A stretch of DNA of 63,719 bases, the filler included, from Hausera hauseri (taxonomy: Eukaryota): NCBI GenBank assembly GCA_046269625.1. It is 12 parts of 12 records of this genome, joined end to end, with 100 filler letters (N's around TTAATTAATTAA, not from the genome) between each part and the next. Parts side by side here need not be neighbours in the genome. Positions count along the whole stretch, not along the records: positions 30,203 to 37,007 come from JBJURY010063773.1; 11 more parts are not named here. The stretch is one strand, 5' to 3'. Shown here piece after piece: positions 8,544-60,977 of the stretch (positions are counted from its first letter, which is position 1; each line of letters opens with the position of its first letter). Position numbers and translations under genes: made by a program. The notes beneath the pieces are model-generated. The model made no database searches and was not told the origin of the DNA. It saw only the letters and a list, made by a program, of their open reading frames with translations.

Positions 8544-8746
8544 TCATTACGAATTGACATTTAATGCGACATTTTCAATTGTAAATCAATTAATTTCGTC
8601 TGCAATATGAAATATTTCGGCTTCAATTTAATTTCGTTGCAATATAAAATATTTCGGTTTCGGTTTCGTTTTCGATTTCGTTTCCAGTCTAATATACATA
8701 TTTACAATTAACAGTTTTGACCCTTTTTACCACATCTCTCCTCCCT
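8544..8746 (-). repeat. Polypurine tract (8735-8746) and start of 3' LTR (from 8734, cut by contig end)
   Basis: Minus strand reads AGGGAGGAGAGA immediately followed by TGTGGT. Confidence 0.75.
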
Positions 8747-11135
8747 GAACGGCACTCTGGGATGTGCCCACTGAGTCAGTAGAGATGTCGCGTAATCGGT
8801 TCATTCGTCCGCGTAAGTCCGCTTCGGAATACGAGTCATTCTGTGGAGATCTGGAATCAAGGTTATAGGACGTAGTAGGTTCTTGTGGCAATATCTCCAC
8901 TATTTCGTTGTTTTCCCCATTAGAGAAATATCTCAACCTTGTAGCCTCTGCCCTACATACTGGACAGGTTGTTTTTCCATTTTTCAGAGTCCACGTTTTT
9001 AAGCAGTACCGGCAAAATTTGTGACTGCAATTTTTGTTGTCCAATACTACGAATCCTTGGTAGAGATCCGCATCGCAGACGGGACATTCTTCTTTTTCGG
9101 CTCCATTAATGTCTACAAGGTTTTCATCCCCCTTTATCCTCTCGAATACTAGTCCTTTTTGTCCTTATATAGGTATCCGTATAATCTCTTTTGATTGGGG
9201 ACACCTTGACTAATGTCCATTCGACTATTTCTTGTTTATCCAAATCGGGTATTCCAGTCTTCTTGTATTGCCTTTTTAGTTGAATTCTAACTTGTGTATC
9301 TACGGGAATTGTCAATCTTTTAGTGCCATTCTTCGACTGGAATATTGGGGCTAGGTATCTACCAATAGTGATATCCTCTTTGGCATATCCATTTCCACTT
9401 ACTATCCATCTGGGAACGGTGGATACATAGAATATCGCTTCTTTGATCTTGTCCTTGCTATAATATTCGGTCATGATGAGGATTCGTTTATATTCTTTTA
9501 CTTGGCCAAATTCTGTAACTATAATTGGAGCATCTTCCTCCCAGTTTTTCCGAAGGACGTTAACTTTTGCCTGAAGGAGATTGGGATTCGTAATCTTTAA
9601 TTGGTCTTCGTTTAGTTTTTCCGTCTTTCGTCTGGTCGATAATTCTTGTCGTTAGTTTGTTTGTGCCTTTGGCGTGAGGCTGTTATCCGTTGACTTGGGT
9701 TTTTCCATTTGGTTTTAACTAGTTTTGCTCCTTTTTTACAAATATATTCCAGGAAGGAAGTTTTCGTCTTTTGTCCTCTTGGGTTTTCTGGGTTATTTGA
9801 CTCCACAGTTATTTCCTTTTGAGCTGGGCTGGTCGTTGGTTTCAGTTGGCTTTTTAGTGCTCCTACTGAATTATTATGAACAGTTACTCGAAATTGGTTA
9901 TTTTCTTGGGGTAGGACTTGTTTATAGATAGGGTATTCACTAAACCCTTTTCGAAATTTTTGTATCGAGATTTTGGGGTTGTTATCGGATACCGCGTTTT
10001 GCATGGGGTTCTTGGGTTTCCGCTTATGTTCCCATCGTAGTGAGTCATAGATGTCTTTTATAAATTTGGTTCGTTGACTTGCTGACATCAATTTAGGGAA
10101 TTTGAATCGTTCGCCATTCTTGGCTTCTAGCATCATTTTAAATTGCGATTCACGTGATGCTGACGACGGAATTAGGCAACCTCTTTTCCTCATCAAAGTA
10201 TTTTCTACTTGGCTTACAACTGCTGGGTTTCGTCTCAATTCCTGAATTCGGGCTATGTATTCTTGTCTAAATCGTAGCCGCTCTAACGCTTCGTGCACTC
10301 GGAATCCGGTGACAATATATCCATAGAAACAGTATCTTATATATTCTTGGATCTCCAAAAAATCTTTCCCTTTTTCAAGCTGTAGTTTCGTAATCCATGT
10401 AACGTCGGGAAAGGTATCCTTTACTATAGCTCGAGGCGCGATTATTTTGTTTATGAGTTCTTCCTCGTTCGTATTTCTGATAGAGACCTCGATCGGAATA
10501 TACCATCCATCATCCTTTTCTCCATAGTTTACGGCTAATATCCGGGTGTTCCTACCATTTGGAACTAGTCTGTAAGACTCTCCATTTTGCTCTATCTCGT
10601 CTTCTGTTGGTTTCTGTATGTATAATAGTGGTGGCAGTGGCTTCATTACTTCTGTTCGCCAGGTCATTTCAATCATGATTTTGGTCCGAAGTTCTGCGAT
10701 CCTGAACTCTAAAGCGTAATTTATGAGGCTATAACAACACAGTTCATAGGTGCTAAATTTTCATTGTTGTCCTTTTTGTGTACTTCAGGATTGTTCTACA
10801 ATCCTGTATTGAATTTCCCCATCAGCGATATGTATGTACAATTGCTGATGGGTGGGCTCGTACGGAATCATTTCTCTCAAGAGGTATGCTCGTGCATCCT
10901 TGGGATTACGCATTGCGTATAACCGAATCAGCCTATTTTCCTTTAAGTCCCATTTCAACCCGTTTGGTATTTTACTCTCTTGATTAAATTCTAGGTAGGC
11001 CTTGTTTTTCAGATTTTCTCCAATTTGTCGATATAAACTTTTGGATATTGGTTAAAGAATAGTTACGTGCTGCTGTAAGAAATCATCAATATCCTAATTG
11101 GAATTGATTACCGGATTTTTCGCCTTTTCGGCCAT
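8727..11135 (-). pseudogene. Accessory ORF (~800 aa ancestral): unknown N-domain, inactive DEDDh exonuclease fold (10029-10541), C3HC4 RING (8955-9086)
   Basis: ATG at 11135 is in frame with ORF 9612-10676. The exonuclease-like segment reads EVSIRNTNEEELINKIIAPRAIVKDTFPDVTWITKLQLEKGKDFLEIQE..GYIVTGF. The RING reads CPVC..CSHKFCRYC..W..CPVC. Several stops here are sense codons in the C7 copy. Confidence 0.8.
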
Positions 11136-11240
11136 ACTTACTTTGATAAAATAAAGATAAAGATTAATCCTAAGACAGATCATCGTTTTGAAGCAAAACA
11201 TTTTCTCTGTCTGATGATAGGATAACCTGATCTGTAATTG

Positions 11241-12577
11241 TCAGGTTATGATATCATAAAGTTCGTCTCGGCGCTCTTTTACCCGTTTATTTCCCTTTTG
11301 AATTTTATCGCGTTTATTACAGTTTTTGGAAACTAGAAAAATCATCACCGTTAATGTAACAAGAACGAAAATTGACAAACTGAATATAGCTATTATCGGT
11401 AAATTGTTTTCCTCTATGGAACAATTCGTGATGAACACTCTTTGTGTACTAAGACACTTATACTGCATTACTTTATTTTTATTGTCTAAAGTCCGCACTG
11501 TATAAGTTTTAGGGTTCTTACCCTTCGCAGTGATTCTTACTATATAGTCATGTTGCGGTCGTAATGATTGGCATTCGGTTTCCGGATTATTCTTTCTTAA
11601 GATTACGGTTTGATTGGTGTACAGGGTGCGACATTCAATTTTAACGTCGTAAATTAACGTTTCCTCCGCGTAGACTAGAATTTTGTTACTTTTTGTCAAG
11701 ATTTTAACTGGTATACTCCCCAGTTCTTTCTCGAGCAGTTCCTCCGAAGTGCCGATCACTGTTGTTAGGGTCGTACTCGGAGCAGTGGACGTTTTTGTCG
11801 TAGTGGTTGGAGGCAGAATCTTACACATTCCGATTTTTGGACAATATCACCTTAAATAGATGCTTCTTTCTCCGGGTACATCTTGTACAAATTGAGTTGT
11901 AACTGATACTCTTGTCCTAGTTGCAGTTTACAACACACAGTGGGTAGTCGTCGTCGGCCCAAATAACAATACTCTAGAATAGGAACTGACGATTTTTGTT
12001 GCATAAATCAAACAGACATTTGTCTATCTCCTGGCAATTCTACTTTGGTCTCAATTCGAATGCTTTGATTCTTTGGGTCTTTGGAGATCCGAATAATGTT
12101 ATAATCTAAGAGCCTTTTAAGTGGGTCAGTATTCTGGATTATCTCGTCCGTCTTGGCTTGATTTGTGTCATTTTGTTAAGGCATTCTTATTAAAAATTCA
12201 GTAATTATATATGCTTGGGCTCCCGGTTGATTATAATAGAACATATGAAACCTGTATCGGTAGTTTTGTCAGAAATCCAAATCGCAACAAGTCCTATGAA
12301 TCCCGTACGCAAAATCGCATGTTCTTGTTGTGGATCTAGCTACAAATATTATTTGAAATTTCACATGGTTCTGAACAGGTTCACTTACTTTGAACCACGC
12401 ACATGGTTTGCTCCAATTCATGTCGTACACTCTAAGTGACTGTAAGTTTTGTATATCCTTCCGACTTGCCGCATATTGTAACTTTTCGGTTTTAGTTATC
12501 GACTTCACCTTCGGTACATACGAGGCGATTAACGATGAGGCCAGGACTATTTGCACATACGATATTGGTCTAGTCAC
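11241..12577 (-). pseudogene. Type I membrane protein in the env position (signal peptide, Cys-rich ectodomain, Thr-rich stalk, FN3-like segment, TM, basic tail)
   Basis: Starts 7 nt after the integrase stop. Contains hydrophobic leader VQIVLASSLIAS, stalk PPTTTTKTSTAPSTT, SLRPQHDYIVRITAKG and TM PIIAIFSLSIFVLVTLTVMIFLV. The middle is disrupted. Confidence 0.72.
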
Positions 12578-12583
12578 TATCGA

Positions 12584-13092
12584 TTACGTTTTCTTTTCTT
12601 TATTTGTTTTGCTTGAACGCAAATTATAGCGTTTGTTTGGTCTTAATTTCGTTTTAACTACTCTCTGAATTGATATGACTTCTTCCTTGCCACTTTTATT
12701 TATATAAACTGTAATTGGTGTAACTTTGGTAACTTTGTAAGGTCCTCTACCTGTTCTGGTATGTTTGAGAGATGTGCCTTTCTTTGCAACTGAATAGTGT
12801 ACGTAAACCAAGCTTCCGGGTTCTAGATCGTGTGGTTTAACGTTCTTATCGTAGTGTTTCTTGAATTGTTCCTGGTATTCTTTGGATAATTCCCTGGCTA
12901 TTTCCCAACATTTGCGTAATCTCATTTGTAATATCTCGACAAAATTTTTCTCTAAATCTTCCGTTCTTGTGGTGTAGGGAATCAATCCTAAATCTGTAGG
13001 TAGTACAGCTTCTCTGCCATATATCATGAAAAACGGAGTGAATCCTGTTGCAGGATGTGGTGTAGTATTAATGGCAAACTGTGTACCTTCTA
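12584..13092 (-). CDS. Ty3/gypsy integrase C-terminus (GPY/F domain)
   Basis: FAINTTPHPATGFTPFFMIYGRE..LP, KKHYDK, GRGPYKV motifs. Confidence 0.92.
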
Positions 13093-20075: not shown

Positions 20076-23000
20076 CATGCATTTTGGACTTAAGAGCCAC
20101 AAACCGCGAGATGATTGTCCCATTCGCCTCGTCTTTAAATTTCCCAAGGACCTTTTGGTTGGTAATTGAATAGTTAAGATGCTCCTTTGGATAGTCAGAC
20201 GTATCCATATGCACAGCCAATTTAGCAAAGTCCTCATAAATGTCCTCTATATGGATCTAATAGATGAAACTATCAGTATTTATGTACATCAGCTGTATGG
20301 ACGTGGATGTGGGAACTATGATGTCATAGTGGAATTTGTACATCAAGGACTTTGACAGGTCCAGTATTGGCATACACATATTTGAGTTTGTTGAATTGCA
20401 AGGATGTTTTCAGCATATGAATGCTGACCATGTTCTTCGCATATATGATGCTTTTGTGGAAGTTTGGTTTGGCAATGAGATTCTTTGCCCGCTTCCACTC
20501 ACAGATCAGTTCGATGTTGATCCTGTTGCCGATATTCTCCATTGTCTTGCCATAAAACGCTGTTGTTGTAAATCTTGAACTGATCCTTCTCAAAATTGTT
20601 CTTGGCATTTGTCCGCAGCTTGGTATTAAGATCTATATAGGGTTGCAGCCACATGGACTGGCTGAACTGCAGGGTCCGATGGATCTTCGTAATGCGGAGT
20701 CCATTTCTGACCGCCTGCTGGAGACTTATGTAGTGGACTTGTAGTAGGATTTGCAAAGTGCCGAATATTTCATTCCCGGTAAAATACCGCCGGAAAAATT
20801 CAATCCCAGTTTTTTCCGTTTATTTATGGATTTTCGAGCATTTTCATAAACAACGTGCCTACAAGACTTTTGCACATATCGTTTTCTGTTAAACACACTC
20901 TTTCTATATATTTTTAAGCAAATAAACTAACATAATGTAGTAATAAGACCAAAAAATGTAAAAATATTATACTTAGTATTTAAAATATATTTTTCTCCTG
21001 TTTAAAGAATAACAGTTCTTCAGAGGTTCTTCCAATTAATTCGTCCTAAAGGTCGATAGCATGAACTTTTATTGCATGCTTGTGTAATCCGGATGTTGAG
21101 CCACCGACAGATTTCAGTACCTTCTTGCAAGATAAGCATTTAGTTTCTTCTTTACCTGTCCTAGAAAAATGTTGCCAGACGTTAAATTTCTATGAGACAT
21201 TATAAAGGATGATTGTTTTTACTGTAATTCCAAATGTTGAATTTTTAACGTGTTGTATTGAATAATATAATGGAATATTAAAACAGCAATTTAAACCGGT
21301 ATTTCAAACTTCGGTTTCGGTACTGTCCTTACTTTTCGCATCCCGGTATTTCCCAGTATTCCAGTAACGGTTTGCAAACTCTATAGAACAGCTTTCTGTG
21401 CTTTCCATGGGGCGGATGCTTGCTGTCAAGGAGAAAAGGAAGCTGTTGATGCCTTATGTGAATAGAAGCCGGATATTCCATATCCTACTCCAGTATGTAG
21501 CCTGTATCACCAGTGGGATCCACATCCAATATAGGGATGTTTTCAGGGTGCTCGATCCACTTGAAGTCACCATATGGAAATGGGGCCCTCATTGCCCTTT
21601 CATACAGGTTGTTGGCATCTAGGTATGATATATATGACGATTCCTTTGTTGAGCCGTATTCGGCCATATACTTGTTGTTAGCCTCGCTATACCGGTGGAT
21701 TGCCTGGCACATTCCGCCTCTAATGCCTCTCTTGATCACGAGTATCATGTCGTAATCCTTTATGAACTGCAGCCTGACACCTGTATATCTAAGAATAGCT
21801 GCCCAGCTCATCTCTATAGCCGTAAAGAAATGAGCTGGATCCAATGCATGGTTCTTCGTCGTAACATCCCTGAAATTCTCAAAGACATCCTTCAGAAGCA
21901 GCACATCCATCTTGAGGTATATGTCGCTGTATTCCCCTAACGTTTGGCACTAGAATTCATACCAGACGTTCTGAACATGCTGATAGTCCATATCACTGAT
22001 ATCGCAGTCTGAGAGGATATTGTAAAAGTCCTCCTTAGCCGTTAATGAGGTTTCATCCAGTGTTTCCCTTGATGTTTTATAGTCATAGGGAAACACGTCT
22101 TTCCTCTTGACTAGGTCAAATGTAGTAGGGAAGAAACTCTTCGTATTCTTGAATTCTTCTGCAGGGAGGTTCTTCACTAAACTGTCAAGTGAAGAGGACA
22201 TGAAACGGAAGTTGTCTACAAAGCGAAGCCTGATTTTCCCAACATGCTTTGTAAACATTATGTACTTCTCCTCACTGTTGGAGATCACATCAATGTTTCC
22301 TTCAATGCTGCCCAGTTCCTGAACAATGAAATGGGAATCATGGTCATTGAGATTATGGAACACTACAGGCACATATGTAAATGTTTTGCAATGTAGATTG
22401 CAGTTATTGCATGCCACGCCTCGAGATGTGCCTGTAAAATGGCAGTGATCCCTGACTTTATAATTCTCCTTAGTGAATGATTTGGAGCAGAAGTAACATG
22501 CTTTTGCCTTGCACTATTCTTCTTCTTGCTACTTCGGCATGCTCATATAGTCCGTTTGCTGTTGAAGCATGTTTTCAAGCTTATGAGCCATATCTTCAAG
22601 TCGTTTCATAAAATGTGCTGCTGCGCCTGGACCCCTGAATAGAAACATTTCACTGTACAGTCCTTTGGCATACATGCAATACGGTGAGAGTTCATGATAT
22701 TGGTATGCCGTTGTGCTGCTGTGTTGAAGACTGGGAGTTCATGTCTGTACTGGTCTGAGAATAGCTTCAAAGTCGCAATAAACGACAACTGGGACCTTTA
22801 GCTTCTCCTCGAAATCCTTGAATTCAATGTAGTCCTCCTTGGGAAATTCTGGCCTGATACAGCAATTGTTGGTGCAGTACATCTTGTGCTCTTTCAGCTT
22901 CTCCACAGCTAACTTGCCACTAAAATGGAACAAGCATAGTTGCATAACTCGATTCTTTCCTTATATTTCGTCATTTTGGATCTGACTAGACGTTCAAAAT

Positions 23001-28394: not shown

Positions 28395-29229
28395 TTACTG
28401 CGGCGGCACGACCCTGCACCGCAGTACAATGCTGTCATCCTTGTAGACAGTTGGTTCATCGAGTAATTCATCCCATTCAATAAAATCCACACTGCCGTAA
28501 CCGACATTCGTCTCGCTCGTCGGACGAGAGAAAACAAATTTATTCTCATTCGGTGTCGACGAAATGTCATACGTCACCGTACAATGGGACATGTCATCAT
28601 GTCCCTGCACCATCAAGCTAATTTCAATCGGCAATCGACACGGCCAGTCCAGTAGATCATCGAACGATCCACGCAACAACGCAAATCCGATACTGACGTG
28701 CGTTCCGCGCCAATCGTTCAGTCCATTCGGCATGACCTGCAATGCCAGTTTGTATCCTCTGTCGTGCGAGAAAAATGCATCGCTGGACAAGATTTCGTTG
28801 TCGTTACCATCCTGTTGGGCTGCTGCGCGTTTTTTCTCGCTGATGTTTTCCACACGCCACCAAAATCCGCTGTCCGTCGCAACGGCGAGACTCACCGGGT
28901 CGAATTGCGGTGACTCGTCAAGGTGCTCGGCAATTGTAGATGTAGTGATCGTGCTTATTGGCATTATAGCACCTTCTTTTTGCAGTAGACCACCAGAATA
29001 CAGTCGCAACGGCATGTCGATGCTACGACGGCCACGCATGAGACTGCCACGACGCATTAACAAACTGATCTGGTTCCTAATTGTCACTAATGTCTCAACA
29101 ATCAGCCGCCCATGACTCATCCCCTCTGATGCAATGTGAGCATTCGTGTCGGCCGGTGTAGGTCCCTCAAACTGACACCCAATTTCTGCGTATGGGCATT
29201 TCACTGCCTTGTTGTCATCTGATATTTGC
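28395..29229 (-). CDS. TRAF-family protein, last exon (TRAF zinc-finger remnant plus MATH domain)
   Basis: CPYAEIGCQF; FWWRVENIS..SDAFFSHDRGYKLALQVMPNG..GTHVSIGFALLRGSFDDLLDWP..GYGSVDFI..YKDDSIVLRC. Acceptor cag at 29230-29232. Confidence 0.92.
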
Positions 29230-30204
29230 CTGAGTCAGCAAATAATTCATTTCAATATTTGACATATTTTAAGGTAATAAATAAAATTTCTAATATCATA
29301 AAAATTCACTTTCTAGAATAATTTTACCTAATCGGAAAATAAATTTTCAACGTCTAACAAAAAGAAATATTCGGGAATCTTGAATAATCGCTAAATTAAA
29401 ATAATTTTATTCAATAAGCTTAAACAAATAATAATTTAAAGTTTTCAGAGCACTTGTTTTATATCTGAAATGACGTGTAGATAGAAAAGTACATCTTCAT
29501 TAACTAAGTTACCATTGTTTTGCATGCTTGTATTTTAAAAATGTATCAATGCGTTATCATTAATTTGCTGAACTTCAAAATATTACATATTCCACGTAAA
29601 GATGGTTTTTTAAAATGAAATTTTTTCATGTTTCGGATCATGATAATTTGGTATCGACCACAGAATCTTGTAGCCCAGAATCTTTTCTACAAAATACAAA
29701 AAACTTTTGGTCGAAAATTGCATATTTCAGTAGATATAATTTGCATAATTTTCCACCTTCATTGTTCAGCTGAGTGAATGTTCGACGATATAATTACCAA
29801 AATTTTGAAATTCGAAAGGAATATTTCTGCATAAAACGTATTTCGGAAACCTTACACAGTGCATTTGAATGGGAATTTGTGCTATACATCAAATTTCATA
29901 TATCAAATCCATGCTATATTTTATATTTCATACATATTGTGTATTTCGTCTTGTTTTCGCATATCTGACATCATACCGGATTCTCCATATGTAGTTTCCT
30001 ACCTGTCCCAGCTTAAAGATTTTATCATTTTTGTATCCTTTCCCTTCAAATTCACAGTTAATTAATACACACAATCAAGTACCGTGGAATTATATATAGA
30101 TANNNNNNNNNNNNNNNNNNNNNNNNNNNNNNNNNNNNNNNNNNNNTTAATTAATTAANNNNNNNNNNNNNNNNNNNNNNNNNNNNNNNNNNNNNNNNNN
30201 NNGT

Positions 30205-32399
30205 TCACGTTTTTAAACAGTATCGGCAGTACTTGTGGATAGAGTCTTTATTATCCAATACCATGAATCCGTGGTGGAGATTGGCATCACAAAGAGGATA
30301 CTCTTCTTTTTCTCCTCCACCTATGTATACGAGGTTTTCGTAAACTTCTATTCGTTCAAATACTAATCCTTTTTTATCTTGATATAGGTATTCATATAGT
30401 CGTTTTTGTTTTGGATCAATAGAGCTTTTCTTTGGGTCATATGACACGGTGACTAACGTCCATTCGACGATTTCTTGTTGGTCTAGGTCTGGTATCCCGG
30501 TTTTCTTATATTGCCTTTTTAATTGTATTAGGACTTGGGTATTTACCGGAATGGTTAGTCTATTGGTACCGTTTTTGGACTGGAATATTGGGACTAAGTA
30601 TTTGCCAATGATCTTGTCCTCCCGGGCGTATCCGTTTTCACTTACGATTATCCGAGGAACACTGGATACGTAAAATATGGCTTCCTTGATCTTACCTTTG
30701 CTATAATATTCAGCCATAACGAGCATTCTGGTATATTCCTTTGCTTCGCCAAATTCTGTGACTACAATTGGTTTGTATTCTTCCTAATTTTTTCGGAGAA
30801 CGTTTACTTCTGTCTTGAGCGACTTTGAACCGGTAGTTTTCAAACTACTTTTGTCGGAATTTCCGATTTCTTCTTTTTTTGTTTCTCCTTAGATCCGTTT
30901 GCTTGTTCACTCAGTGTGCGGCGACCAACATAGTGTTTTAGTTCTTCGCACTGTTTTTTACTAGTTTTACTTCTCTTCTTGCTAATACACTACAAGAAGG
31001 AAGTTTTCGTCTTTTGTTCTCTCGGAATTTCTCTAACGCTCGATTTCAGACATTCTGACATTCTGTTAGAGACCATACCCTTTTCCGTCTGGGCTTGGCT
31101 GGTTGATGGTTTTTGTTGGCTGCTGGTTGTCTCTGCTGGGCTGTTATAAACAGTCACTTAAAATCTGTAATGCCCTTGGGGTTCAATTTGTCTATATATT
31201 GGGTATTAGCTGAGACCCTTTCCGAATTTTTGTATCAAAATTCTTGGGTTGTTGTCGGATATCACATTCTGTGTAGGGTTTCTAGGTTTCCACTCATGTT
31301 TCCATCGTAATGCGACATAAATATCCTTTATAAGCCTCGTTCTTTGACTTGCTGATATAAATTTAGGAAATTTGAATCGTTCACCACTCATGGCTTCTAG
31401 CATCATTTTGAACTGTGATTCACGTGATGCTGACGGAAAAAGACATTCTCTTTTCCTCATAAAGGTGCTTTCTACTTGACTTACAACCGCTGGATTTCGA
31501 CTCAGTTTACAAATTCCGACTATATACTCCTGTCTAATTTCCAGTCTTTCTAACATTTCGTGCACTCGGAATCAGGTTACAATACATCCATATAAGCAAT
31601 GGTTTATATCTTCCTGGACTTCTATAAAATCTTTCCGTTTTTCGAGTTGTACTTTCGTAATTCCGGTAACATCGTGGAAAGTATCCGTCATTCTGACTCT
31701 AGGCGCAATCGTTTTGTTTATAATTTCTTCACCGTTCGTACTTCGGACAGAGACTTCGATTGGGGTATACCACCCGTCATCCTTTTCCCCATAATTTACG
31801 GCTAAAATTCGAGTGTTCTTGCCATCTGGAACTAGCCTATAAGACTATCCATTTTGTGCTGTCTCATCCTCCGAAGGTTTTTGTGTGCATATTAATGGTG
31901 GGAGTCGTTTCATTACTTCCGTCCTCCAGGTCATTTCGAACATGAGCTTGGTTGGGAGTTCTGTGATTCTGAATTCCAGAGCATAGTTCACAAGACTATA
32001 GCAACATAGCTCATAAGTGCTAAATTTCCACAGTAGCCCCTTTTGTGTGCTCCAGGATTGTCCTACGATCCTGTATTGAATTTCTCCATCAGCGACATAC
32101 ATGTACAATTGCTGATGCGTTGGTTCATATGGAATCATATCTCTCAACAGGTAGGCCCGTGCATCCTTGGGACTTCGCATTGCATATAGTCAAATCAGTC
32201 GATTTTTTTTAAACCCCATTTCAACACATTTGGTATTTTACTTTCCTGATTGATTTCGATATAAGTTTTTTTTTAGATTCTCCCAAATTTGGCGATATAA
32301 GCTTTTAGATAGTGGCTTGAGGACTGTTACATGTTGTTGCAGGAAGTCGTCGATGTCATATCCGGAGCTGGTTGCTGAATTCTTCTTCTTTTTGGCCAT
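30205..32399 (-). pseudogene. Second copy of the exonuclease-like/RING accessory ORF
   Basis: Alignable with 8990-11135. Reads ILAVNYGE..EVSVRSTNGEEIINKTIAPRVRMTDTFHDVTGITKVQLEKRKDFIEVQE. ORF 30205-30726 links the pre-RING domain to the RING in one frame. Confidence 0.85.
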
Positions 32400-32499
32400 A
32401 CTTACTCTGCCAAAATAAAAATAAAGGTCAGTCCTAAGACGGATATTCGTTTTGAAACAAAACATTTTATCTGCCTGATAAGAGGATAACCTGATCAGT

Positions 32500-33400
32500 A
32501 ATTGTCAAGTTATGCTATCATAAAGTTCGTCTCGGCGCCCTTTTACCCGCTTATCTCCCTTTCGATTTCCATCGCGTTTATTACAATTTTTGGAACTAGA
32601 AAAATCATCGCCGTTAATGTGACAAGAACGAAACTGGACAAACTAAATGTAGCTATTATCGGTTTCCAACGGAATTTACTTTTCGACGCTTGTCCGAAAG
32701 CTCCAACACTTCCTGGGTAGGTTGTGGGAGACGGATATAATTGTTTCCTTAGGAGTTGTGGTACTGAGTCATATTTTATCAGTGATATTTCGGATCCTGT
32801 GTCTATCAGCGCATACACCGCCCACTCTTCTAATTGAATTTTTGCGAAAGGCCTACCTTCGGTTACCGTACCGTAATAACTTGGTGCTAGTCGGGCGTGT
32901 CTTATCGTGGACACTTTGTAGCCGTTGATGGTAACTTCAGTGGTTCCAACTGGCTGATCGATTAATTGTCTTAACTCTCCAATTGGGTATAGTTCGTTAT
33001 TCGCACCATTCGCGTTTTCTATTTCCTGTTTTCTAACTGGCGGCTGGATTTCTTGGTTTCTGAGATGGTGTGTTTCGCGGTTTCAGGTAAATGTTGACTG
33101 CCTTTCGTTCGGTCTAGGTTTTCTAGGTGAATAAATTATACCGTAATCGTCGACTGCTGAGCGACGATGTGGGGCAGCCGTTCTTTCCGTTCCGTGTTTT
33201 CTTCCTTCGTAAGGATCCTCTAGACTAAACGGTTTTCGATAGACGTCTGTTTGGCACGAACTCAGATTGTTTCTTGCAATCTTCATATACAGGTACCATC
33301 GGCGGCAGTATCGGCAACGGTAATTTCGTAACAGAGTAGTTTTTGTGCCTGTTCGACTGGGAAATAGCGTATACTCCCTTAGGCTCGTCATCGTCAGAAT
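32500..33400 (-). pseudogene. gag C-terminus (frameshifted zinc knuckle) and aspartic protease, joined by deletion to the membrane-protein TM tail
   Basis: CRYCRRW../..VYEDCK; ALIDTGSEISLI. Junction at ~32663 leads into PIIATFSLSSFVLVTLTAMIFLV, homologous to 11241-11400. Confidence 0.82.
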
Positions 33401-33409
33401 TATTTCTCC

Positions 33410-33975
33410 TTATTTTAGTAACGCTATGGAACATCACCTTCTGTAGGCGCATATCGGTTTCGTAAAAATTTACCATTATGATGTTTGACTCTAATCCTTT
33501 CCCAGTATCGTATTTCGCACCATAACAATGTCCGGTGTGCATGTCTAGTCTTCCTGATGCCAATTTATACACTCTGATTATTTTCCCTTGCTGCATTTCT
33601 AATTCCATGTCTACATATCTTATTCTTCCCATCTCTCTAGCTTGCTTACAATGCTGACATTCTAAATTCATGGGAATTGGTGGGGTTGTTGGCTTGATTA
33701 TTGATGAGTGTCCGTATACCAGTCCACAATGGAAAATACTGCAAAATCGTCGCAACATACATTCTACTCCGTCTAAGGTAACTAGTTCTCGTTGTTGATG
33801 AAACACATAATTTTTCTCTTTTGTTTCTAATTTATCTGGTCTCGCGTCTTCACACACTTCTTAGTTCATTAATGAGTATTTCTGGCCCAGTCTAAATTTG
33901 TCACAGTCATAAACTGTGACTGCGCCTATCTGCCTTATTAGCATCATCATGGTTAAGAAGTTATTTAACCACTTG
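33410..33975 (-). pseudogene. Chuvirus-type (class III, gB-related) glycoprotein N-terminal part
   Basis: Signal-like FLTMMMLIRQIGA, then VYDC..YSL..C..Q..VEC..FHCG..HSS..C..G..ASG..GHCYG, the Cys pattern of chuviral glycoproteins. One in-frame stop; truncated at ~33410. Confidence 0.78.
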
Positions 33976-36661
33976 GACTCGTTTCCTCTATTATTTCCGA
34001 TTATGTTTCGTAGCAAATCTTCAACTCTATTATTGCCAAGGAAAGACGTATTTTGCCGTTCTTCTCTTTCAAACAATTTTGGCCAATTCACTTCTCGCGG
34101 TAGTTTCCTGTCAGCCTTTCTCACCAAGCTAATGGCCTTATTGAATTCGTTTTCTCGGACTGGATTGATTTTAACGGCCAAATATAGAAAAACTTTCCTT
34201 ACCTCCTCTACGGTGTTCTCTGCCATAATTTTCTCGATTACCATTTCATCGCTTAGGGTACTTCTGGATAATTTACACCGAAAACTTTTCATAATTTTGG
34301 CTGCGTTAAATATAGCCTTTTCTTTTTTGTCCAGTATGTTGCCACCGAGACTAGGGTGGTTCACTATTCGTATCAACTTTTCCATGAGTTTCTTCAGTTC
34401 TTCGTCACCGGTGCTGAAGGTTGGTATGGGCATTGGCCTCAGTTCTCTGATTAAGTCTCCACTATAATCAATTTCTTCTCGCATTTTCCGTGGTCTACCG
34501 ACGAAACGCTTCTGTTTTATTACAGTCGGTGCGACCTCACTAGTTGGCGCTAGATTCTTATCGTATTGTGTCTTGTCTTCGTCGCTTTGCAGATATTCAA
34601 AATACATTGCTGCGTTTTGAACTCCTATGGATCGTCCTACCCACTGTTCTGCTCTGGCTTTTTCTTTTGACTCATCGGGAGAAATTGTTACCACTATCCT
34701 GTTTACTTCCTCCGGAATAATTCCGACTTCTATTAATAATTCTAATTCATCTAGTATTCTTCCTCTAAAATAAAGTCTATAGTTAACTCATGGGTGTATC
34801 CATTGCTCTTTATCTATGCTAATACATCTCTCACAATGGATCGAGTAGTAAATTCATGTTCCTTTTCGTCCATCCAGTCAGATGCTATCTTTACTATGAT
34901 CGTCTCCTCTGCCTTTTCCTTCAAGATTTTAGCATATTCTTTAATTAAAATCTTAGGTGCCGCACTATAAATTGTACCTTCGTTGGCTAATTTGGTTAGA
35001 GTGGGGACTAACTGTCTTAATCGAGTTTCGGTGAGGTTTATATTAATTAACTTAGTTAAATCTTTCTCTGTTTGTGCTGAGTCCAAAAGCATTTCCACAT
35101 TGAATTTTTGGTCCAAAGGATATACCTCCGTTCTGCTCAATCGTATGGGAGTTTTCGGTTTTTCAGAAATTATTGCATCTATATATGCCTCCAATTCTGC
35201 TTTGTTCTCATTATCCGGCAGTTGATAGTCCCTTGGTGGTGCATCAGTTGGCCCGTCCACACCTGCAGTCCATATTGTTTTTCTGAGTTCTTGTAGCTTC
35301 TGTTGCATTTGGGCCATTTTCGTTGTCCGGAAACAGCGCCCATTACCAGAAGTTTGGTGTAGCAGGGTTAACAACGAACATAATTCTTTAGCCGGAATCA
35401 GTCATTGTTCTTGATAGTTTGTTAGTTCGGAAGTGACATCTCTTTGCCATCTTTGCACGAATTGTGACTTGTCACCATTTTCTGCTTTTGTATGGACATA
35501 TTTGTTTTTATAGACTTCAAGTTCTTTAGTTAGTTCGTCTAACCTTATCGACCTCTGTTTAGTCTTAATGCAAGTTTCTTCGACTTGCTGTATCTGCTGA
35601 AACAATTGTCTTAATTTCTCGTCGCTAATTACCGCCATTTCCACCATCAGTAGCGCTAATTCATACATATAGTTAATACTTTTTGAATCTGGATCTATCG
35701 CATCTAATAACTTTTTTACAAATTTGATTTCTTCACAGCTAAGGTGGTGGTCGTTCTTTATTCTACTCTGTTCGGTGTGATGCCTTTGATCCATTCCGTC
35801 TGTCCATTCTTGTGGATGGTGTAAGAACTTTATCTTTTCTTAAACGATTGACCGATATTCGGGACAAAAGTACAAGGTTCTAAGGTCTCGGATTGAAATT
35901 TCCGCGATGGGCTTGGCTGTTAAGTACCGTATTACTTTCAGGCGGGCATCTCTCAATCTTGGATAAAAGTCACAAGTTGCGTTCCGTTTTTGTATAAAAG
36001 TTTGTTTCTTCGATCATTTTATACATATCATCCAATATTGTTATTTCTTGTTTTTTCCGATAAAGTCCAATTGACGCAATGCCTCGAATTGGATTTGGAT
36101 GTCAATTTTTGCCTTCATCATATCTAGATTTTGGGCGTATTCTTCTAATTGCTTCTTTACTGTGGGTTCGCTCTCCGGAAATTCGTTTTTCCTACTGGCT
36201 ACTAATTTACTCAACCTTATTGTTACTTTGTACCATTCGTTCAACTGGTTAGCAATTTGTGGATTTGCCAATATTGCTTTGTCCAATATTTTGTGAACGT
36301 CTTCTAGCTCATCATCTGGACCTTTAATAAAACGGATGATCCGACGGGCGTAGTCGAACTTGTCTTTATATTCGTCAAATTTGAGAATACAAGCCATAAT
36401 TATTTTCTGTGTTTTGCCATTATTTTTATGCATAATTCTATTCCTCAGACCATATATCTGCGACCTTTTTTCGGCCTCAATCTTATTACGATTTTCCAGA
36501 CTTGTATATTGTTTTGATGCCGTAGAAGCAACTTTTATCACCTCCATTAAGGGTGGAATGTCTATTGAGTCTATGCCCAACATCTCTAGATCAATTGCAT
36601 CTCGTTCCTTGACCGGTTTTCCCTTGAGTCGTTCGACTAGTGAAAATAGAATTTTATTCAT
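33976..36661 (-). pseudogene. Long uncharacterised helical polyprotein region preceding the glycoprotein
   Basis: ORFs starting at 36661, 35794 and 35374 share one frame. One frameshift leads to ORF 34694, which runs into the glycoprotein. The region is charged and coiled-coil-like, with AT-hook-like KRFVGRPRK. Confidence 0.65.
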
Positions 36662-36689
36662 GACACGCTCTAATTTACTTGCTACTCTA

Positions 36690-37007
36690 AAGGATGTACA
36701 AATATTACAAATTTGTCATATTGATGAACCATTTATACAGGATGTACTAATATTACAAAAATTGTGACATTGATGAACCATTTATGCAGGATGCACCAAT
36801 ATTACAAATATTGTCACGTTCATGAACCACTCATACAGGACCTGCGAATATTACAAAAATTGCCATATTGATAAATCACTTATGCAGGATGTACCAATAT
36901 TATTTACGTTTTCTTATTGATGAACCATTAATACGGAATGTACCAATATTTCAAACATTGTCGTATTGTTGAACCGTTTATGTAGGATGTATCAATATTA
37001 CAAAATT
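36690..37007 (+). repeat. Minisatellite, ~48-bp unit, ~6.5 copies
   Basis: Unit approximately GGATGTACCAATATTACAAAAATTGTCATATTGATGAACCATTTATGCA; runs into the contig end. Confidence 0.9.
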
Positions 37008-43564: not shown

Positions 43565-45775
43565 TTAAGGTTGAAGAAAGTGGAGGAGATAAGCTGGAAA
43601 ATGCGGAAGAAATTTGATGCTTTGGTGGAGGTCGGTGAGGGAGTGGATTAAAGAATTGGACCGAAATGGGAGGTAGTGAGGTTGTCGGAGTGTCAGGCAA
43701 GGTATGTAAAGTAGTGGAAAACAACGAAGGCTGAGATGTAATAGCTGGTTGAATATATGTTTGTGAGGACTGATTATCAAATTAACTTTTGGTGTTTGCG
43801 GGGTCGACAATGGAGCAGTTTCAGCTGACGTGGTATCGTCAATAAAGAAAGCAGGTTTTAAGTTAGTAATATGGACTGATTGTTTTTTGTTGTCCTTAAG
43901 AATTATGGCGTGATAGGAATAAAGTGAAAGAAGTTTATAAGGGCCGGTGTACCGTGGCTGAAAACCGACCGGAGTTTGGTTTTTTAACCAAACGAATTTA
44001 GCTATGTAAAGGTCGTTAGGAATGTATGGTCGATTGCCATGTAGAACTCTACAAAAAGCGTCTTTGCTAATGGCAACAAAATGTTCCTGGGCCGCCCGAA
44101 TTGTTTCATCAATAGGTGAGTTGTCCTGCTCAGTTAACTTGAAAAGGGCACATAGTGGTGTGCCAAATAGAGCCTCCGACGGGGAGCAACCGGTTGATGT
44201 GGATGGAGTGTTTCGCCATCCGAGTAAGACAAAATGTAAAAGGTTTACCCATTGGGGGTTGTGTTCAGCTAGAATTCTGAGAGAGGTTTTCATTGTACCA
44301 TGAAAACGCTCTAAAAGGCCGTTCAACTGGGGGTGGTAGGGTTTTGTGTGGATGTGCGATATGTTCAGTCGATTTACTAGTGATTTAAAGAGATTCGACT
44401 CCAATTGGGGGCCTTGGTCGGTGATGATGTGTTTGGGTTCGCCGAATCGGCTGAGCAATACACGTATAAAGGAGTCAGCTATGGACTCAGTGTTTGTGGA
44501 TCGAAGTGGAACTGCTTCTGGCCATTTAGACAAACGGTCCATTATTGTGAGGATAAATTGGTGGCCGTTGTCTGGTGGAAGAGGGCCGACGATATCGAGA
44601 TGGACAGTATCAAAGCATGACGTACAGGAAAAATGATAAAGTTGCGGATTTAGGTTTTTAATGATTTTGAATTTTTGGCATGCCGCACACTCCTTAACCC
44701 ATGCCTGCACGTCTGTTTTCATTGATGGCCATGTAATTTGGCGTTTCAAGAGGTGGTATGTGGCCTTAGATCCTAGATGGTGTAAGGCATGAATGTTTGT
44801 AAAGGCTATTCTTTGGAGAGAAGGAACTAATACGATTTTAGGCTATCCAGGGTCGGTGGTATCGAAGGCCACGCCATGATTGATTTTAAAAGATTTATAA
44901 GAAGTGAGAGTTTCATCATCCGGTTGATTCCGTCGAAGAGTCTCATTATCTAGAATTGGTTTAAAAGTTATCGAATTAACTGAAAGTGACAAAAAATCAG
45001 CCACGACGTTGTCATACCATGTATATGTTTTATGGTAAAATGAAAGTTGACAAATAGGATATATGTCTTTCCTGACGTAAAGAGGGAGATTTCATGGTAA
45101 AAATGTGTAGCAGCGGCTTATGGTCCGACTGAATTGTGAAGGTGCGTGATATTAATAGATGTTTAAAATGCTTAACTGCGAGGAGCATTTCTAAAATTTC
45201 TCTGTCGAAGACAGAGTACTTTTGTTCTGTTGTAGTAAATTTTCTAGAAAAGAATCCTAAGGATTGATGCGCGTTGTTTTTTAATTGGTGGAGTACTGCG
45301 CCTGCAGCGATAGTTGATGCGTCCGTTATAAGAAAAAGTTCTGATGTAGAATCTGGATAGGTTAATACTTCTACTCTGTTGAGATTTGTTTTTAGGTGTT
45401 CGAAAGCATTAACGAGGTCAGGTGTCCAAATAATAGGTTTTTTATTTTGACCGGAACTTTAGGTAGCGAATGGAGCGGTTAATATCGAAAAATGCGGCAC
45501 GTATTTGTGAATAAAATGCAAGGTACCGAGGAATGAAGGCATTTCTGAAGTTGTGCGTGGTAATTGAATGTTTTTCAGTTGAGTGATGCAGTTTTGCTGT
45601 GGAGCGTGTCCGTTTGGAGTAATAATGTGTTCGAGGAAATAATTTTTTTGTTTGAAGAAGGAGCACTTTGCGAAGTTTATTTGGAGGTTGTTTTAGTGGA
45701 GGCGTTTGAATACAATGCGTAGGTGCGCAGTATGGTGTTTAGAGGATGAGGAGGCAATTAAAATATCATCGATGT
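43565..45775 (-). mobile_element. Ty3/gypsy pol (RT end, RNase H, integrase), degenerate
   Basis: IDDILI, LITDAS..GAVL, HLDIVGPLP, ITDQG.Q, YHPQLNGLLERFH and YTGPY. Confidence 0.93.
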
Positions 45776-46189: not shown

Positions 46190-49180
46190 TCACCTATAAG
46201 GCCAGAAATAGAAATAGAGGTAAATGGATACCCTATGAAGGCTCTGTTAGATACTGGATCTACAACAACAATAATGGGAAGAAGTCAATTACCCAAAGAA
46301 TTGAAAAAGAAGTTTCGAAGACCGACTACTACATTAATAGATGTAGGAGCTTTCGGTACAAAAGAAGAAATTAAGATTGTTCTTGACGGAAAAATTAAAA
46401 TCGGCAAACAAACGCTGAAACACACTATAAGGATAGCCGATAATTTGACAAATGAAATCCTAATTGGGTGTGATGTACGAAATCAATTAGAAAACGCATA
46501 TACAGATGTAAGAACCAGTCAGTTGAAGACGTTTGATAAAGACCGAGGCAGAGGAAAGGTCCCGCTAATAAAAGATATTTTAATACCACCAAAATCTGAG
46601 GTAATAGTACCCGGAAAAATAGAAAGCCAAGTATTACCAGAAGTTGTTTATTTTTAACCATTTGCACAAGTTATGGAAAAGTATGAAGTTTTAATCTCTC
46701 CTAATGTAGATAAAGTAAGTGAAAGAAAGATCCACTTGCGAATTTGCAATACGGCAAGTAAGGAAAGACGATTGCGAAAGAATACAAGAGTAGGAGAAGT
46801 AACGACTAGTGAAGGAATAGTAAAACAAGAAATATGTTCGACAACTTCAGACGAAGATAAGATAGAGAGGTTAATGACGGGGAAACTAAAGAGCGAACCA
46901 AATAAAAATATAGAAAAAGATAAAATAACCAATATTATCTGGCACAAGAAGTTGCAGAATTGCGACATTTTAACTGAGGATGAGAAGAGAAGGCTAATCG
47001 ACTTATTACAAAAAAGTAATGATCGATTTGCACAAAAATGATTACGATTTGGGTACAATGAACGTAATACAACATACTATTAAACTAAAAGAAGTACAGG
47101 ATAACCCAATCAAGAAGAGACTGTATCGATTAGCGTATGACAAAAAACAAGAAGCACGAAAGATAATAAAAGAAATGAGGGAAAACAAGATTATCAGACC
47201 AAGCTGTTTCCCCTGGACGGCTCCTGTGATAATGGTTAATAAGAAGGATGGAACTGAGATTTTGCATAGATTACCGAGCATTGAATAAAATACCCGAAAC
47301 GGATACATACCCATTCCCAAGAATTGACGAAATATTAGACAGGCTGCACGAATCGACCATATTCTTAACGATAGATTTACAAAAAGGCTATTGGCAAATG
47401 GAGGTAAAAGAAGAAGATAAACCAAAAACAGCCTTTTCAATCGGAGAAGGATTACGGAAATTTAATAGGATGCCATTTGGGCCAAAGAACGTACCACAAA
47501 CATTCCAGAGAGGAACGGAACTTTTACTATTGGACGCTCCACACGCCATGGTATATATTGATAATGTAATAATAGCATCATCAAATTTTCAACAACATCT
47601 AAAACATCTGCAAGACCTCTTCGATAAGTGTGAAATCATGAGTCTCAAGATAAACACGAAAAAAAGTTCATTTGCCCAAGCGGAAGTAGATTTTCTTGGA
47701 CATAGAGTAGACAGGCACGACGTAAAGCCTCAAGACAAACTATTGGGGAAAATAAGAGATTTCACAAAACCAACTACAGTTAAAGAACTACGTCGATTTT
47801 TAGGTTTGGCGAATTACTATCAAAGATTTATAAAGGATTTGAGCAAAATCGCAAAACCTTTATATGAATTATTGCGTGAGGAACTAGATACAGTAGTTTG
47901 GACTAACGAGTGTCAGGGAGCGTTTGATTATTTAAAAGAAAGATTGCTAACTGCCCCAATATTTATTTACCCCAATATAAACAAGCAATTCATTTTGGCC
48001 ACAGATGCCAGTGATTATGGAGTAGGAGCAGTGTTGTCACAAAAGGGCGAAGACAATAAGGAGCATCCAGTAGCTTATGTGTCACGGAAACTTAATAAAC
48101 ACCAAAAGAAATATGCAGTAATTGAAAAGGAGTTGTTGGCAGTAATATTTGCTCTAGAAATATTTTCAACGTGCATTAGTAAAAATAAACCATTGTTGAT
48201 ATATACCGATCATCGACCACTATAATGGCTGAAACAGCATGAAAATCCAAATAGTCGAATATTACGATGGGCTCTTAAACTGCTGCCCTATACATTAAAT
48301 TTCCAGTATAAACTTGGAACGCGAAATGTAAACGCAGATTATTTATCCAGAATGACAGAAGATTCAAAGGTAAAGAAAGAAGTAATAGCAGCTGTTTGGA
48401 GTATGGAGGGATCCGTAGAGAAAATCAAATAAAACCAACAGGAAGATCTCGAAATAAAAGTGATTAGGAATTTTATGCAGAATAAGGTACTACCAACAAA
48501 CAAAGAATTAGCACGACATCTAGCTCGATGTAGTGATGCCTATGAAGAGGAGGATGGGTTTTTGTATTACATCCACCAGGATGGACCGGCATTAGTAATT
48601 CCAAAGAAGAATAGAACAGTTTTGTTAACACAATATCAAGATGGATTACTCGGTGGACACCAATCAGTAAGAAAAACACTCAATAAGTTAAAGCGAAAGT
48701 ATTTCTGGCCCTCAATAATTTAGGACGTACAAGAATGGTGTGAAAGCTGTAAATTATGCGCTACCCGGAAAATACCGGATCAAAATTCAAAGCACCTTTG
48801 AAGGTATGGGACAACCCCCAGCACCATTCGAATTTACTGCAATGGATATAACGGGATCACTACCATTAACTCGGAATGGGAATAAATATATTTTGGTCTT
48901 CATGGACTGTTTCACCAAATGAAAGCAGATACGATTGCTGAGAAGTTTGTCGAAAATATAGTATTTAATTACGGAGCCCCAAGAATTATTCTGACCGACC
49001 AAGCATCAAATTTAACTGGAACTGTAATGCAATCTACATACGATATATTGAAGATATTGAAGATACACTGCACGCCAGGACACTCAGAAAATAACGGCTT
49101 GGTTGAGAGGTACGTTAAAGATCTAAAGGGAAAATTACGAACAGTAGTTAATACTAGACAAGACAATTGGAATGAATATG
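46190..49180 (+). mobile_element. Ty3/gypsy pol (protease, RT, RNase H, integrase), degenerate
   Basis: ALLDTGS, LRFCIDYRALN, RMPFG, YIDN (mutated YxDD), ATDASDYGVGAVL, GGH..K..YFWP, TDQASN and NNGLVER. Confidence 0.95.
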
Positions 49181-49619
49181 TAAATGTGTGTGTTACATCT
49201 TCACCTTGTGTTGCCACGAGGAGGAGGGGAAAAAACACATCCAACAATTCACATTCAGATAGTGTGTGTAATGACAGCTGTTTCAAACACTTGCTGGATT
49301 ACTCATCATTACAATTTGCATAACTTTGAAGTATTCATAGCATTAGTGAGGCAATTACAATAATTAACATGGGAATCAATGTCAATGGGCCACAGCCACA
49401 AGGCAAGTGCAATTACAGCTATGCTAATTAGGGTTTAATTAAGCTTTTAAAGAACAATCGGCTTATTTAACTGAACATATTCAAGAGGATAGAGATACCA
49501 CCCACACTCGCACACATTAGCACATCCGATAACGGAACATGGATGTTAGCATGTGCTTAGAAACAGGTGTGCAGTGTGGGGAAAGTGCGCACACACTGCT
49601 GCACTCGTACCATCTTCCT

Positions 49620-49977: not shown

Positions 49978-50580
49978 ATCACTGGTTCCTCCTCCGTCTG
50001 TTGGTCAGTGGACACCAGTTGCCAGTTTGACATGTAGATCTTAAAATTAAAAAATAGAGGTCAAAATAAATGTAAAATAATACTTCATAATTGTATTGTT
50101 ACAGTGCTATCTTAAACTACACTTGCCTGATTGCCAACAGTCTCCTTCAGTTCTACTTCATAGTCTGAATAAAATGATACAATGATTATATTACATCTAT
50201 CTGTGATAAACATTGTTTAATCAAGATTAAATACACGTGTTCTGAAATAGCATGTTTAAAAAATACTGTGTTAGACATGTGTAGAGATTAATATTTACAT
50301 CTAATCAATCATTTAGCTAAAAATGATCATTACAAACTGAGTCCAGCAAACCAACATGTACAGAGTTTATTAGCGAACAGTTAAGCTGACCGGGTGGGAG
50401 GGGGCGGGGCTCCCTACTCTGAGTGGCCGGCTGAGAGTGCTCTATGGGCGGATTGTTTTTCTGATTGAGTCGGCGATACATCCAGTAGCCGGCAGAACCT
50501 AAAAGCAGCAAACCAGCGGCGCATGCGAGCTTCTGGCAGGTGCCCGAAGTTATAGTGGGCAGAAGTTTGCTGAGAGTCAT
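49978..50580 (-). CDS. Mitoguardin-like gene, 5' exons of the next tandem copy
   Basis: MTLSKLLPTITSG.. is a paralog of 55206-55805; cut by the contig end. Confidence 0.6.
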
Positions 50581-51278
50581 GAGTGTTTGTGCTTTAAATG
50601 AGCAGTTGAAGAGAAATTTAGCGGAGCGCAGAGACACACGTCCTCACTCTAGCGATGCAGGAACACGAATGTGGATGCGTTGCCAAGGTGACAGCATTTA
50701 TAACACGCACATGCGTCACGTGATCACGCAGGCGATCCCTAATACACTCTTTATTAGAAAATACAATTGTTATTAATAACGACAATGATAATAATTGGTT
50801 TGATTATTGGAATAGATCCGAGTTAATGTTTCACTTTGAAGATATTAAAATGAAGTTTATTTTCTGCCGAATCAGTTAAATTTAGTAAACAGGTTAATCT
50901 GAACTGCTCACAGTGTAGTGCTAACTGCTATAATAACTTATTTTAAACACACGTCCAAGCTTTTACAATATTATACTTTACATTCGGTTTTGTTTAATTT
51001 TAAGAACTGTTAAACCCTTTTTAATTTAGAATTGATCACGTGGATTATATGAGGTGGAAACTGAAGAACATAAGGTGTTTGGGTGGTGCAGTGGCTTATT
51101 ACACCAGTTGGAAGTTTACACAGACATGTTTGGTTGTTTATTTGGACTTTAACATCATGTTCATCAAGTAATATTACTATTGACCTTTGTGGAGTTTATG
51201 GAACTGCTTTGTATGTGTTCACTTCCATTAAAATACTTAAATATTTATTTTTTTGCTGCATTTTCATTATCATGGATT

Positions 51279-51622
51279 GGGTGGCACAGTGGCTTAGTGG
51301 GTTACACTGTCGCATCACAGTGAAAAGGTTTTGTTTGATCCTTGGGTGGGGCGATCTGGGTCCTTTCTGTGTGGTGTTTACATATACTTTGCGTGTCTGT
51401 GTGGGTTTTCTCCGGGTACTCCGGTTTCCTCCCACAGTCCAAAGACTTGCTACCAGGTTAATCGGAGACACAGAATTGCCCTGTAGGTACCTGCGATGGA
51501 CTGGCGCACCATCCAGGGGGTTACCATGAGCTTTGCGCCTGTTGAAAAGCTGGGATAGGCTCCAGCATGCCAACCTGACCCTAATTAGGACAGAGGTTAA
51601 AGACAATGGATGGATGGATGGA
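51279..51622 (+). mobile_element. tRNA-derived fish SINE (V-SINE/HE1-like)
   Basis: GGTGGCACAGTGGCTTAG A-box head, core GTGGGTTTTCTCCGGGTACTCCGGTTTCCTCCCACAGTCCAAAGAC and (ATGG)n tail. Confidence 0.88.
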
Positions 51623-60800: not shown

Positions 60801-60977
60801 TACTTGCTCTATTTTATTTACATAGTGATTTGGCGCCATCTCGTTTCCTTCGTCACATAGATTATTCATGTAATCTAGTCCAAATGGCTGATCGCAATTT
60901 GCTTTATAGTGAGTGTCATTCCTAGTGGTAATCTCGAGATTTCTTCTTTATCTAAAGGTTAAGTACTACTTAGATGT

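Follow-up and report, generated by a model that had tools for sequence, protein, structure and literature searches.

The closest described counterparts of the element analysed here, a decayed retroelement in a stretch of DNA from Hausera hauseri, are the Burro/GYPSM1 elements of planarians, which are giant gypsy-like long terminal repeat (LTR) retrotransposons (Arkhipova and Yushenova 2019, PMC6431247; there citing Jurka 2007 and Grohme 2018). In Burro, one frame encodes gag, a ubiquitin/SUMO-like domain, a BCL-2 domain, an envelope protein (env) related to the fusion glycoproteins of mononegaviruses and a protease, in this order (PMC6431247). Elements with the layout GAG-ENV-POL and an ENV of HSV/gB type (HSV, herpes simplex virus), called 'ancient errantiviruses', have been described in Platyhelminthes, Nematoda and Bryozoa (Chary and Hayashi, eLife, PMC13524379), and chuvirus-like glycoproteins occur beside gypsy pol (PMC13524379). 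In the published members of this group, env normally lies upstream of pol (PMC6431247, PMC13524379), so that the position downstream of pol, which an earlier note on this stretch had taken as normal, does not apply. A full-text literature search for the order env-gag-pol in LTR retrotransposons with an envelope returned PMC13524379 only, and the cases given there (six of six rows, from two oribatid mite genera) carry an env of the F type, not of the gB type. What is said here of published elements refers to the relevant parts of the papers cited.

The window is the whole stretch of DNA that was analysed, 63,719 nucleotides in length. It is made of 12 short contigs (4-10 kb) of H. hauseri with N spacers and a 12-base stop linker between them, and adjoining pieces are not genomic neighbours; one of the 12 has a 100-N gap inside. 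The element in question lies on contig 30203-37007 (JBJURY010063773.1), where every gene is on the minus strand. This window copy is probably what remains of a single giant Ty3/gypsy element of the Burro type, which was collapsed by two deletions and is now dead; the statement covers both of the gene orders discussed below. The features of the copy, in its own direction of reading, and of a sister copy on another contig are as follows.

36691..37005, no strand: 49-bp tandem array of 6.4 copies with a non-coding period, at the contig's 5' edge and directly before the coding region (repeat analysis)
34757..36715, minus: upstream part of the polyprotein, decayed, with 5 stops in 653 codons and no domain assigned to the first ~540 (translation, profile scans)
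34862..35089, minus: helical unit of the spacer, the interval between gag and env in relatives (profile from relatives only, E 4.5e-6, best match in the window)
34683..34769, minus: second half of the ubiquitin-like domain of the spacer, past a frame change near 34800 (profile from relatives only, E 5e-4)
34056..34406, minus: helical domain in the place of the Bcl-2-like domain of relatives (low-confidence model; predicted local distance difference test, pLDDT, 57)
33921..33974, minus: predicted internal signal peptide, eroded (alignment with the signal peptides of relatives; hydropathy)
33861..33863, minus: in-frame TAA, 19 codons past the predicted signal cleavage, in the mature glycoprotein (translation)
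33411..33920, minus: N-terminal ~170 codons of a class III fusion glycoprotein of gB/chuvirus type, the rest of the ectodomain and the membrane anchor being absent (Pfam, HMMER, Foldseek, alignments)
33407..33411, minus: first break, where glycoprotein homology ends and other copies diverge (12 of 16 alignments; 45 contigs)
33266..33322, minus: decayed CCHC-knuckle-like motif split over two frames, ~85 bases past the first break (motif score against shuffles)
32664..33082, minus: linker containing a YP motif, then the N-terminal part of an aspartic protease with its DTG at ~32806 (Pfam RVP, phmmer)
32660..32663, minus: second break, an in-frame join between the protease and the transmembrane segment of a post-integrase membrane protein (drop in identity to the sister copy)
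32579..32635, minus: transmembrane segment of the second membrane protein (hydropathy 2.28; 2.78 in the sister copy)
31206..32396, minus: decayed gene for an RNase T/DEDD-type exonuclease, with 4 internal stops (Pfam RNase_T, E 0.007)
30203..30783, minus: region leading into a RING finger, cut at the contig end (75% identical to the sister copy)
8544..13092, minus: sister copy on another contig, with integrase end (13078-12590), membrane protein (to 11244), exonuclease and RING (9164-8730)

The glycoprotein fragment is a class III fusogen of the gB/chuvirus (Monjiviricetes) type. Pfam PF24664 (Monjiviricetes_fusion) matches the reading 34787-33228, with X at the stop, at E 6e-8 and 31.5 bits against a cut-off of 27; the match spans only profile positions 7-172 of 653. 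A full HMMER scan of 1.84 billion proteins found 28 at E<=0.001, all of which match in the glycoprotein part. The structural model of this part, built from a 13-row alignment, has a pLDDT of 75.6. With it, Foldseek found 17 viral structures at E<=0.001, the best of them a chu-like glycoprotein (E 4e-10). Among solved structures herpesvirus gB leads, weakly (E 0.08), and its superposition gives a Z of 4.7 and a root-mean-square deviation (rmsd) of 4.3 over 103 residues, with which secretins tie. A sequence search of the PDB with the profile of the env fragment returned nothing significant. The chuvirus-type fusogen named in the earlier note is thus borne out by the Pfam score and the chu-like glycoproteins, the match to gB itself being weak.

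The same is true of the internal signal peptide and of the cysteine pattern that the note had quoted. The hydrophobic stretch at 33974-33921 is weaker than the signal peptides of relatives (19-residue hydropathy of 1.22 compared with 1.95-2.21). It is followed on the minus strand by every element of the pattern, and the invariant cysteines align with those of relatives. The pattern had been reported to run on without a stop. However, the TAA at 33863-33861 divides the reading into 34787-33861 and 33860-33225, and only the second part, which is open across 33410, agrees with that description. As this frame closes at 33225 and the protease sits in a different one (33082-32543), no continuous reading leads from the glycoprotein into pol. 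The complete ectodomain, membrane anchor and open frame of a functional fusogen are not found. No fusogen can be produced from the window copy, because the gene is interrupted by the stop after 19 codons, has lost three quarters of its length together with the anchor, and has five stops and a frame change upstream of it.

Upstream of the glycoprotein, the spacer profile (helical unit and ubiquitin-like domain, from relatives alone) finds its two best matches over all frames of the window in the expected order, which places a ubiquitin-like domain before env. Pfam ubiquitin is itself weak in the relatives L002 and L003 (E 0.018 and 0.005). The model of 34406-34056 suggests a Bcl-2 fold. Its top 8 VIA rows all belong to the Bcl-2 family (Z 5.0-6.1), the best being BAK1 (Z 6.1, rmsd 3.6 over 96 residues, for a model with a pLDDT of 57), and the model leaned on the rows of relatives. 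Bcl-2 sequence tests of this segment and a profile run on the window stayed below significance, and Foldseek was blank. The ESM Atlas yielded no usable match for 36715-36044 or for 34406-34056. Where the tandem array meets the coding region, a run of pyrimidines (36700-36686, minus strand) ends in TAG and resembles a splice acceptor.

The relatives provide the frame into which these pieces fit. Twelve of the 28 glycoprotein matches were scanned with Pfam; the other 16 are pieces of 92-318 residues, eight of which were looked up and are unnamed or 'hypothetical'. Gag or pol domains are present in nine of the 12. When the env alignment was used as a DNA-pattern query, at least five loci were found in metagenomes, with no match in viral or prokaryote contigs. 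The protease lies 3' of env in all eight scanned proteins that have one and in all three metagenome loci that reach it. In the nearest relatives that include a reverse transcriptase (RT; four proteins, three loci), env is followed by matches to gypsy-type profiles for RT, RNase H and H2C2 integrase, and the Pfam scans of relatives gave no match to the Pao family. The context of the glycoprotein is therefore Ty3/gypsy and not BEL/Pao, the frame of reference chosen in the earlier note. The order in relatives is gag, ubiquitin-like domain, Bcl-2-like domain, signal peptide, gB-type env, protease, RT, integrase and second membrane protein. In L002 a single frame of 3703 residues runs from knuckles, the ubiquitin-like domain and env to the proteases, RT, RNase H and integrase, with two hydrophobic segments behind them, and a separate open reading frame (ORF) for an RNase T-type exonuclease lies downstream. 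The polyprotein of L001 (3426 residues) has a similar layout and begins within the spacer; it too is followed by an exonuclease ORF.

Several of these relatives have features of their own. The intact polyproteins of L001 (2-10279) and L002 (97-11205) contain two or three protease domains, and an extra hydrophobic pair (1585, 1753) between the proteases of L001 makes a third membrane cassette. P0029 (4844 residues) combines six protease stretches with ankyrin repeats and C2H2 fingers. A candidate exonuclease-like stretch was seen by eye before the env of P0012, and P0009 is a retroelement polyprotein filed under a bacterial genome bin. Word-seeded protein searches produced 120 candidates among longer proteins for the glycoprotein piece, 1433 for the exonuclease ORF and 2 for the junction peptide, and none of them was a close relative. 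DNA-pattern scans using the window's own proteins found no match.

Downstream of the first break the family order continues. The protease matches Pfam RVP at E 0.0017, slightly below the cut-off, and P0029 at E 4e-5 (phmmer), and the linker before it resembles the env tail of P0009 (phmmer E 0.0016). The YP motif precedes the protease motif by 62 residues, compared with 32-62 in nine of 12 relatives; YP-type motifs also terminate gag in ordinary gypsy elements. Env (33920-33411) is thus upstream of the protease motif (~32806) on the same strand, as in Burro. About 50 residues past the catalytic motif, at the second break, identity to the sister copy falls from 13-14 of 15 to 2-6 of 15, and the transmembrane segment that comes next follows the integrase in the sister copy. 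Splicing was set aside as the origin of this join, since in the sister copy the join point is not immediately preceded by an AG. The transmembrane segment at 32579-32635, the sister copy and the layout of L001 and L002 agree with the second membrane protein 3' of pol that the earlier note had proposed. The exonuclease remnant matches the ORFs of L002 and L001 (phmmer E 6e-5 and 9e-5 in a search of 19 sequences).

The sister copy is 74.7% identical to the 3' part of contig 30203-37007 over 2479 columns. Its integrase end is 29-36% identical to relatives and its RING finger scores 36 bits in Pfam. A 12-base purine tract (8746-8735) followed by TG is as expected at a 3' LTR. Both LTR ends are present in neither contig, and RT, RNase H and most of the integrase are absent from both copies.

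Comparison by published description shows that the window copy has in common with Burro the ubiquitin-like domain, an env followed by a protease, and tandem repeats (PMC6431247). A BCL-2-like domain is present in Burro, while at the matching place in the window copy the model suggests such a fold. Decayed fragments with stops and frameshifts have been reported in a related planarian, as found here (PMC6431247). The gag of Burro is at the N-terminus, whereas in the window copy no gag is seen upstream and the knuckle-like motif is 3' of env. The post-integrase membrane protein and the exonuclease-RING gene of the window family are not mentioned for Burro in the section of PMC6431247 devoted to it. 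The GAG-ENV-POL elements resemble the window copy in their Ty3/gypsy context and in having a gB-type env with an internal signal peptide before pol, but they are intact (PMC13524379). The mosquito element Anakin (Dezordi et al. 2020, PMC7642597) is an LTR element with the same class of glycoprotein; it belongs, however, to BEL/Pao, whereas the relatives of the window copy have a gypsy-order pol with env before it. The rotifer LTR elements Juno and Vesta have, likewise, a DEDDy 3'-5' exonuclease (ORF3) downstream of pol (Rodriguez et al. 2017, PMC5408684). In Juno and Vesta the exonuclease replaces env, whereas in the relatives of the window copy it accompanies env and a second membrane protein.

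The alignments of env with relatives end at 33411-33429 in 12 of 16 cases and at 33399, 33447, 33498 and 33231 in the other four. In relatives, invariant cysteines follow at this point; the codons after the break lack them. From the break point to the first protease motif there are ~200 residues here, compared with 504-750 in all 12 relatives. Of the contigs in public run X1, 45 part from the sequence and have their loose ends at 33407. Since homology stops at 33411-33429 and these contigs leave at 33407, the join at ~33410 is a break. It is likely to be a deletion scar and not a working fusion gene.

By combining the topology of the relatives with what is known of class III fusogens, it is possible to describe how the intact element might have worked. 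One long polyprotein would be made, and its internal signal peptide would direct the gB-type ectodomain into the endoplasmic reticulum. Host signal peptidase would free the ectodomain from the upstream part, and the element's own proteases would also cut the polyprotein. The membrane anchor would bring the chain back to the cytosol, where the protease, RT and integrase follow. A second signal and anchor pair would yield a further surface protein, and the class III fusogen, as a trimer, would enable particles to enter other cells. In the window copy, the first deletion would have removed ~350-550 env codons including the anchor. The second would have removed most of the protease through to the integrase, that is, at least 1.7 kb as judged by the sister copy and ~4 kb by L002. 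Stops and frame changes would then have accumulated, leaving neither a fusogen nor a fusion protein possible.

The collapse of one element by two deletions, which the earlier note had raised as one of two possibilities, is the best reading of the locus, with L001 and L002 holding env, pol, second membrane protein and exonuclease together. Both halves belong to one clade and stand in the order of that clade, and one element with two deletions is therefore favored over the join of unrelated elements, the other possibility raised, which is unlikely. Several observations weigh against the two-deletion reading. Profile scans of the 653 codons upstream gave neither a capsid nor a knuckle, and none of the relatives examined has so long a gap; no intact member of exactly this family turned up in the protein or DNA-pattern searches. 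The relatives are only 22-31% identical to the window copy over env. The ectodomain of the second membrane protein has no significant match to them (E 1.5 and 0.14; its profile is not significant on the window), and the exonuclease ORFs of L001 and L002 gave no match to a RING. Three alignments cross the first break, that of P0002 continuing to 33231 at 27% identity and those of P0015 and P0027 to 33369 and 33354, and none of the 8 contig pieces listed, of 8424 from run X1, bridges 33407. Finally, the knuckle-like motif beyond the break scores 25.2, which 2 of 2000 and 3 of 2000 shuffled versions of its stretch also attain, and no CCHC motif lies 3' of env in any of 17 related polyproteins.

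The score of this motif is reached in none of the 11 other tiles of the contig, and the env tails of three intact relatives give 5.4, 7.4 and 20.4. Intact knuckles score 43.8-58.0, and the motif ranks fifth in the window. We hold it to be real with good confidence. The earlier claim that sequence past ~33410 derives from gag is accordingly upheld in part: the motif beats its shuffles, while its score is weak and profile scans found no capsid anywhere in contig 30203-37007. If the two-deletion element had the usual gag-env-pol order, the motif would be a knuckle in the env tail that is either additional or due to chance, a choice that we make tentatively and at slightly less than even odds. The fusogen 5' of gag that the earlier note proposed would instead require a rearranged lineage, with the accessory domains and env placed as a cassette before gag, in which the first deletion took the rest of env together with the capsid. 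This would explain the motif 3' of env and the lack of any gag match upstream. The coding region does open with an ATG at 36660, just behind the non-coding tandem array, and the order env-gag-pol is reported for the F-type elements of oribatid mites (PMC13524379). On the other hand, all 11 CCHC knuckles, which occur in eight of the 17 polyproteins, are 5' of env; the eight are not fully independent, as P0011 and P0029 fall in one cluster and P0018 and L005 look close. The gag of Burro is N-terminal (PMC6431247), the array may simply mark a truncation, and the motif is weak beside intact knuckles. The env-before-gag order is thus possible for this lineage and, on balance, unlikely. Equally doubtful is the full form of the idea, a Burro-derived lineage in which a cassette of ubiquitin-like domain, Bcl-2-like domain and gB-type env precedes gag, so that capsid, nucleocapsid and pol form the cytoplasmic tail of the fusogen, with the second surface protein and the exonuclease-RING gene behind; on this view the twice-deleted form may have been propagated as a non-autonomous passenger.

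A chimera of two related families would place the knuckle differently. The 5' part (spacer and start of env) would come from an env-bearing Burro-type element and the 3' part from an env-less sister, in which a gag knuckle leads straight into protease, membrane protein, exonuclease and RING; template switching, or nested insertion followed by deletion, would have joined them. Such an origin accounts for a knuckle-like motif ~170 codons ahead of the protease, for the 45 contigs that continue differently at 33407 and for the lack of a RING in L001 and L002, and partners exist, as the gag and exonuclease matches of other clade members at 60071-62433 indicate. However, it requires an extra event that happens to preserve the colinear order of the family. 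No LTR remnant is seen at the join, the two sides are similar in composition (GC content 0.39-0.41) and in stop density, and the searches found no env-less relative with such a 3' end. We regard the chimera as rather unlikely. A mis-join at 33407 during assembly of a short contig of high-copy repeats is far less probable, even though the stretch is a string of 4-10 kb contigs, no listed piece bridges the join, and 8233 contigs of run X1 map to the stretch. Most of the latter are less than 95% alike, and the whole stretch is therefore a repeat family. An artefact would hardly bring together two halves of one clade in family order, or produce two independent breaks of the same kind in one contig, and a 499-base piece of the contig is matched without difference in run X1. 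This run is the one public run that contains the stretch; no RNA run is listed as containing it. Least credible of all is a functional gene under selection, be it a fusion or a domesticated gene, or a recent insertion of the glycoprotein gene of a free chuvirus. It is true that the frame is open across the first join, that the second join is in frame as well, and that chu-like viral glycoproteins top the fold search. A fusion is nevertheless largely refuted by the TAA 19 codons past the signal peptide, and what follows is a 211-codon open frame with neither signal peptide nor membrane anchor. A free virus is contradicted by the nearest sequences, which are retroelement polyproteins, and by the retroelement spacer upstream.

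Other parts of the window carry further mobile elements and gene fragments. On the minus strand, 60071-62823 contains an ORF for an exonuclease that belongs to this clade (profile E 1e-11) and, ~1.3 kb later, a decayed capsid (E 4e-12) with a knuckle; this looks like two elements head to tail. A decayed protease-RT-RNase H-integrase at 46196-49194 (plus), 39-40% identical to L001 and L002 over ~680 residues, is a further member of the clade, and 43568-44842 (minus) is the integrase of another gypsy-type element (Pfam). Pfam matches to a protein-primed DNA polymerase B and an endonuclease VII at 21488-22513 (minus) form a pair that we take to be that of Polinton-type elements. The minus strand also has a Dynamin N-terminal fragment (1606-2145; Pfam E 1e-31), and a tandem duplication of ~5.2 kb, with 90-92% identity and no assigned ORF, fills 49978-59645. 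A MATH/TRAF domain ORF (28398-29234, minus; Pfam E 1e-23) is rich in cysteines near 28977; MATH domains have been reported in Burro elements.

The two-deletion copy is likely to be an ordinary dead remnant. It adds one more host to those with Burro-type gB-env elements and, being a dead fragment of a published kind, matters little in itself. Through two intact relatives, the exonuclease gene is linked to the Burro-type group, and so is the membrane protein encoded after the integrase. If env did stand before gag in this lineage, the locus would represent a gB-type env-gag-pol element, an order otherwise found, in the part of the literature cited above, only for the F-type env of mites. The env cassette would then be mobile within a single polyprotein and gag would be tethered to the tail of the fusogen, which would bear on how such elements package their envelope.

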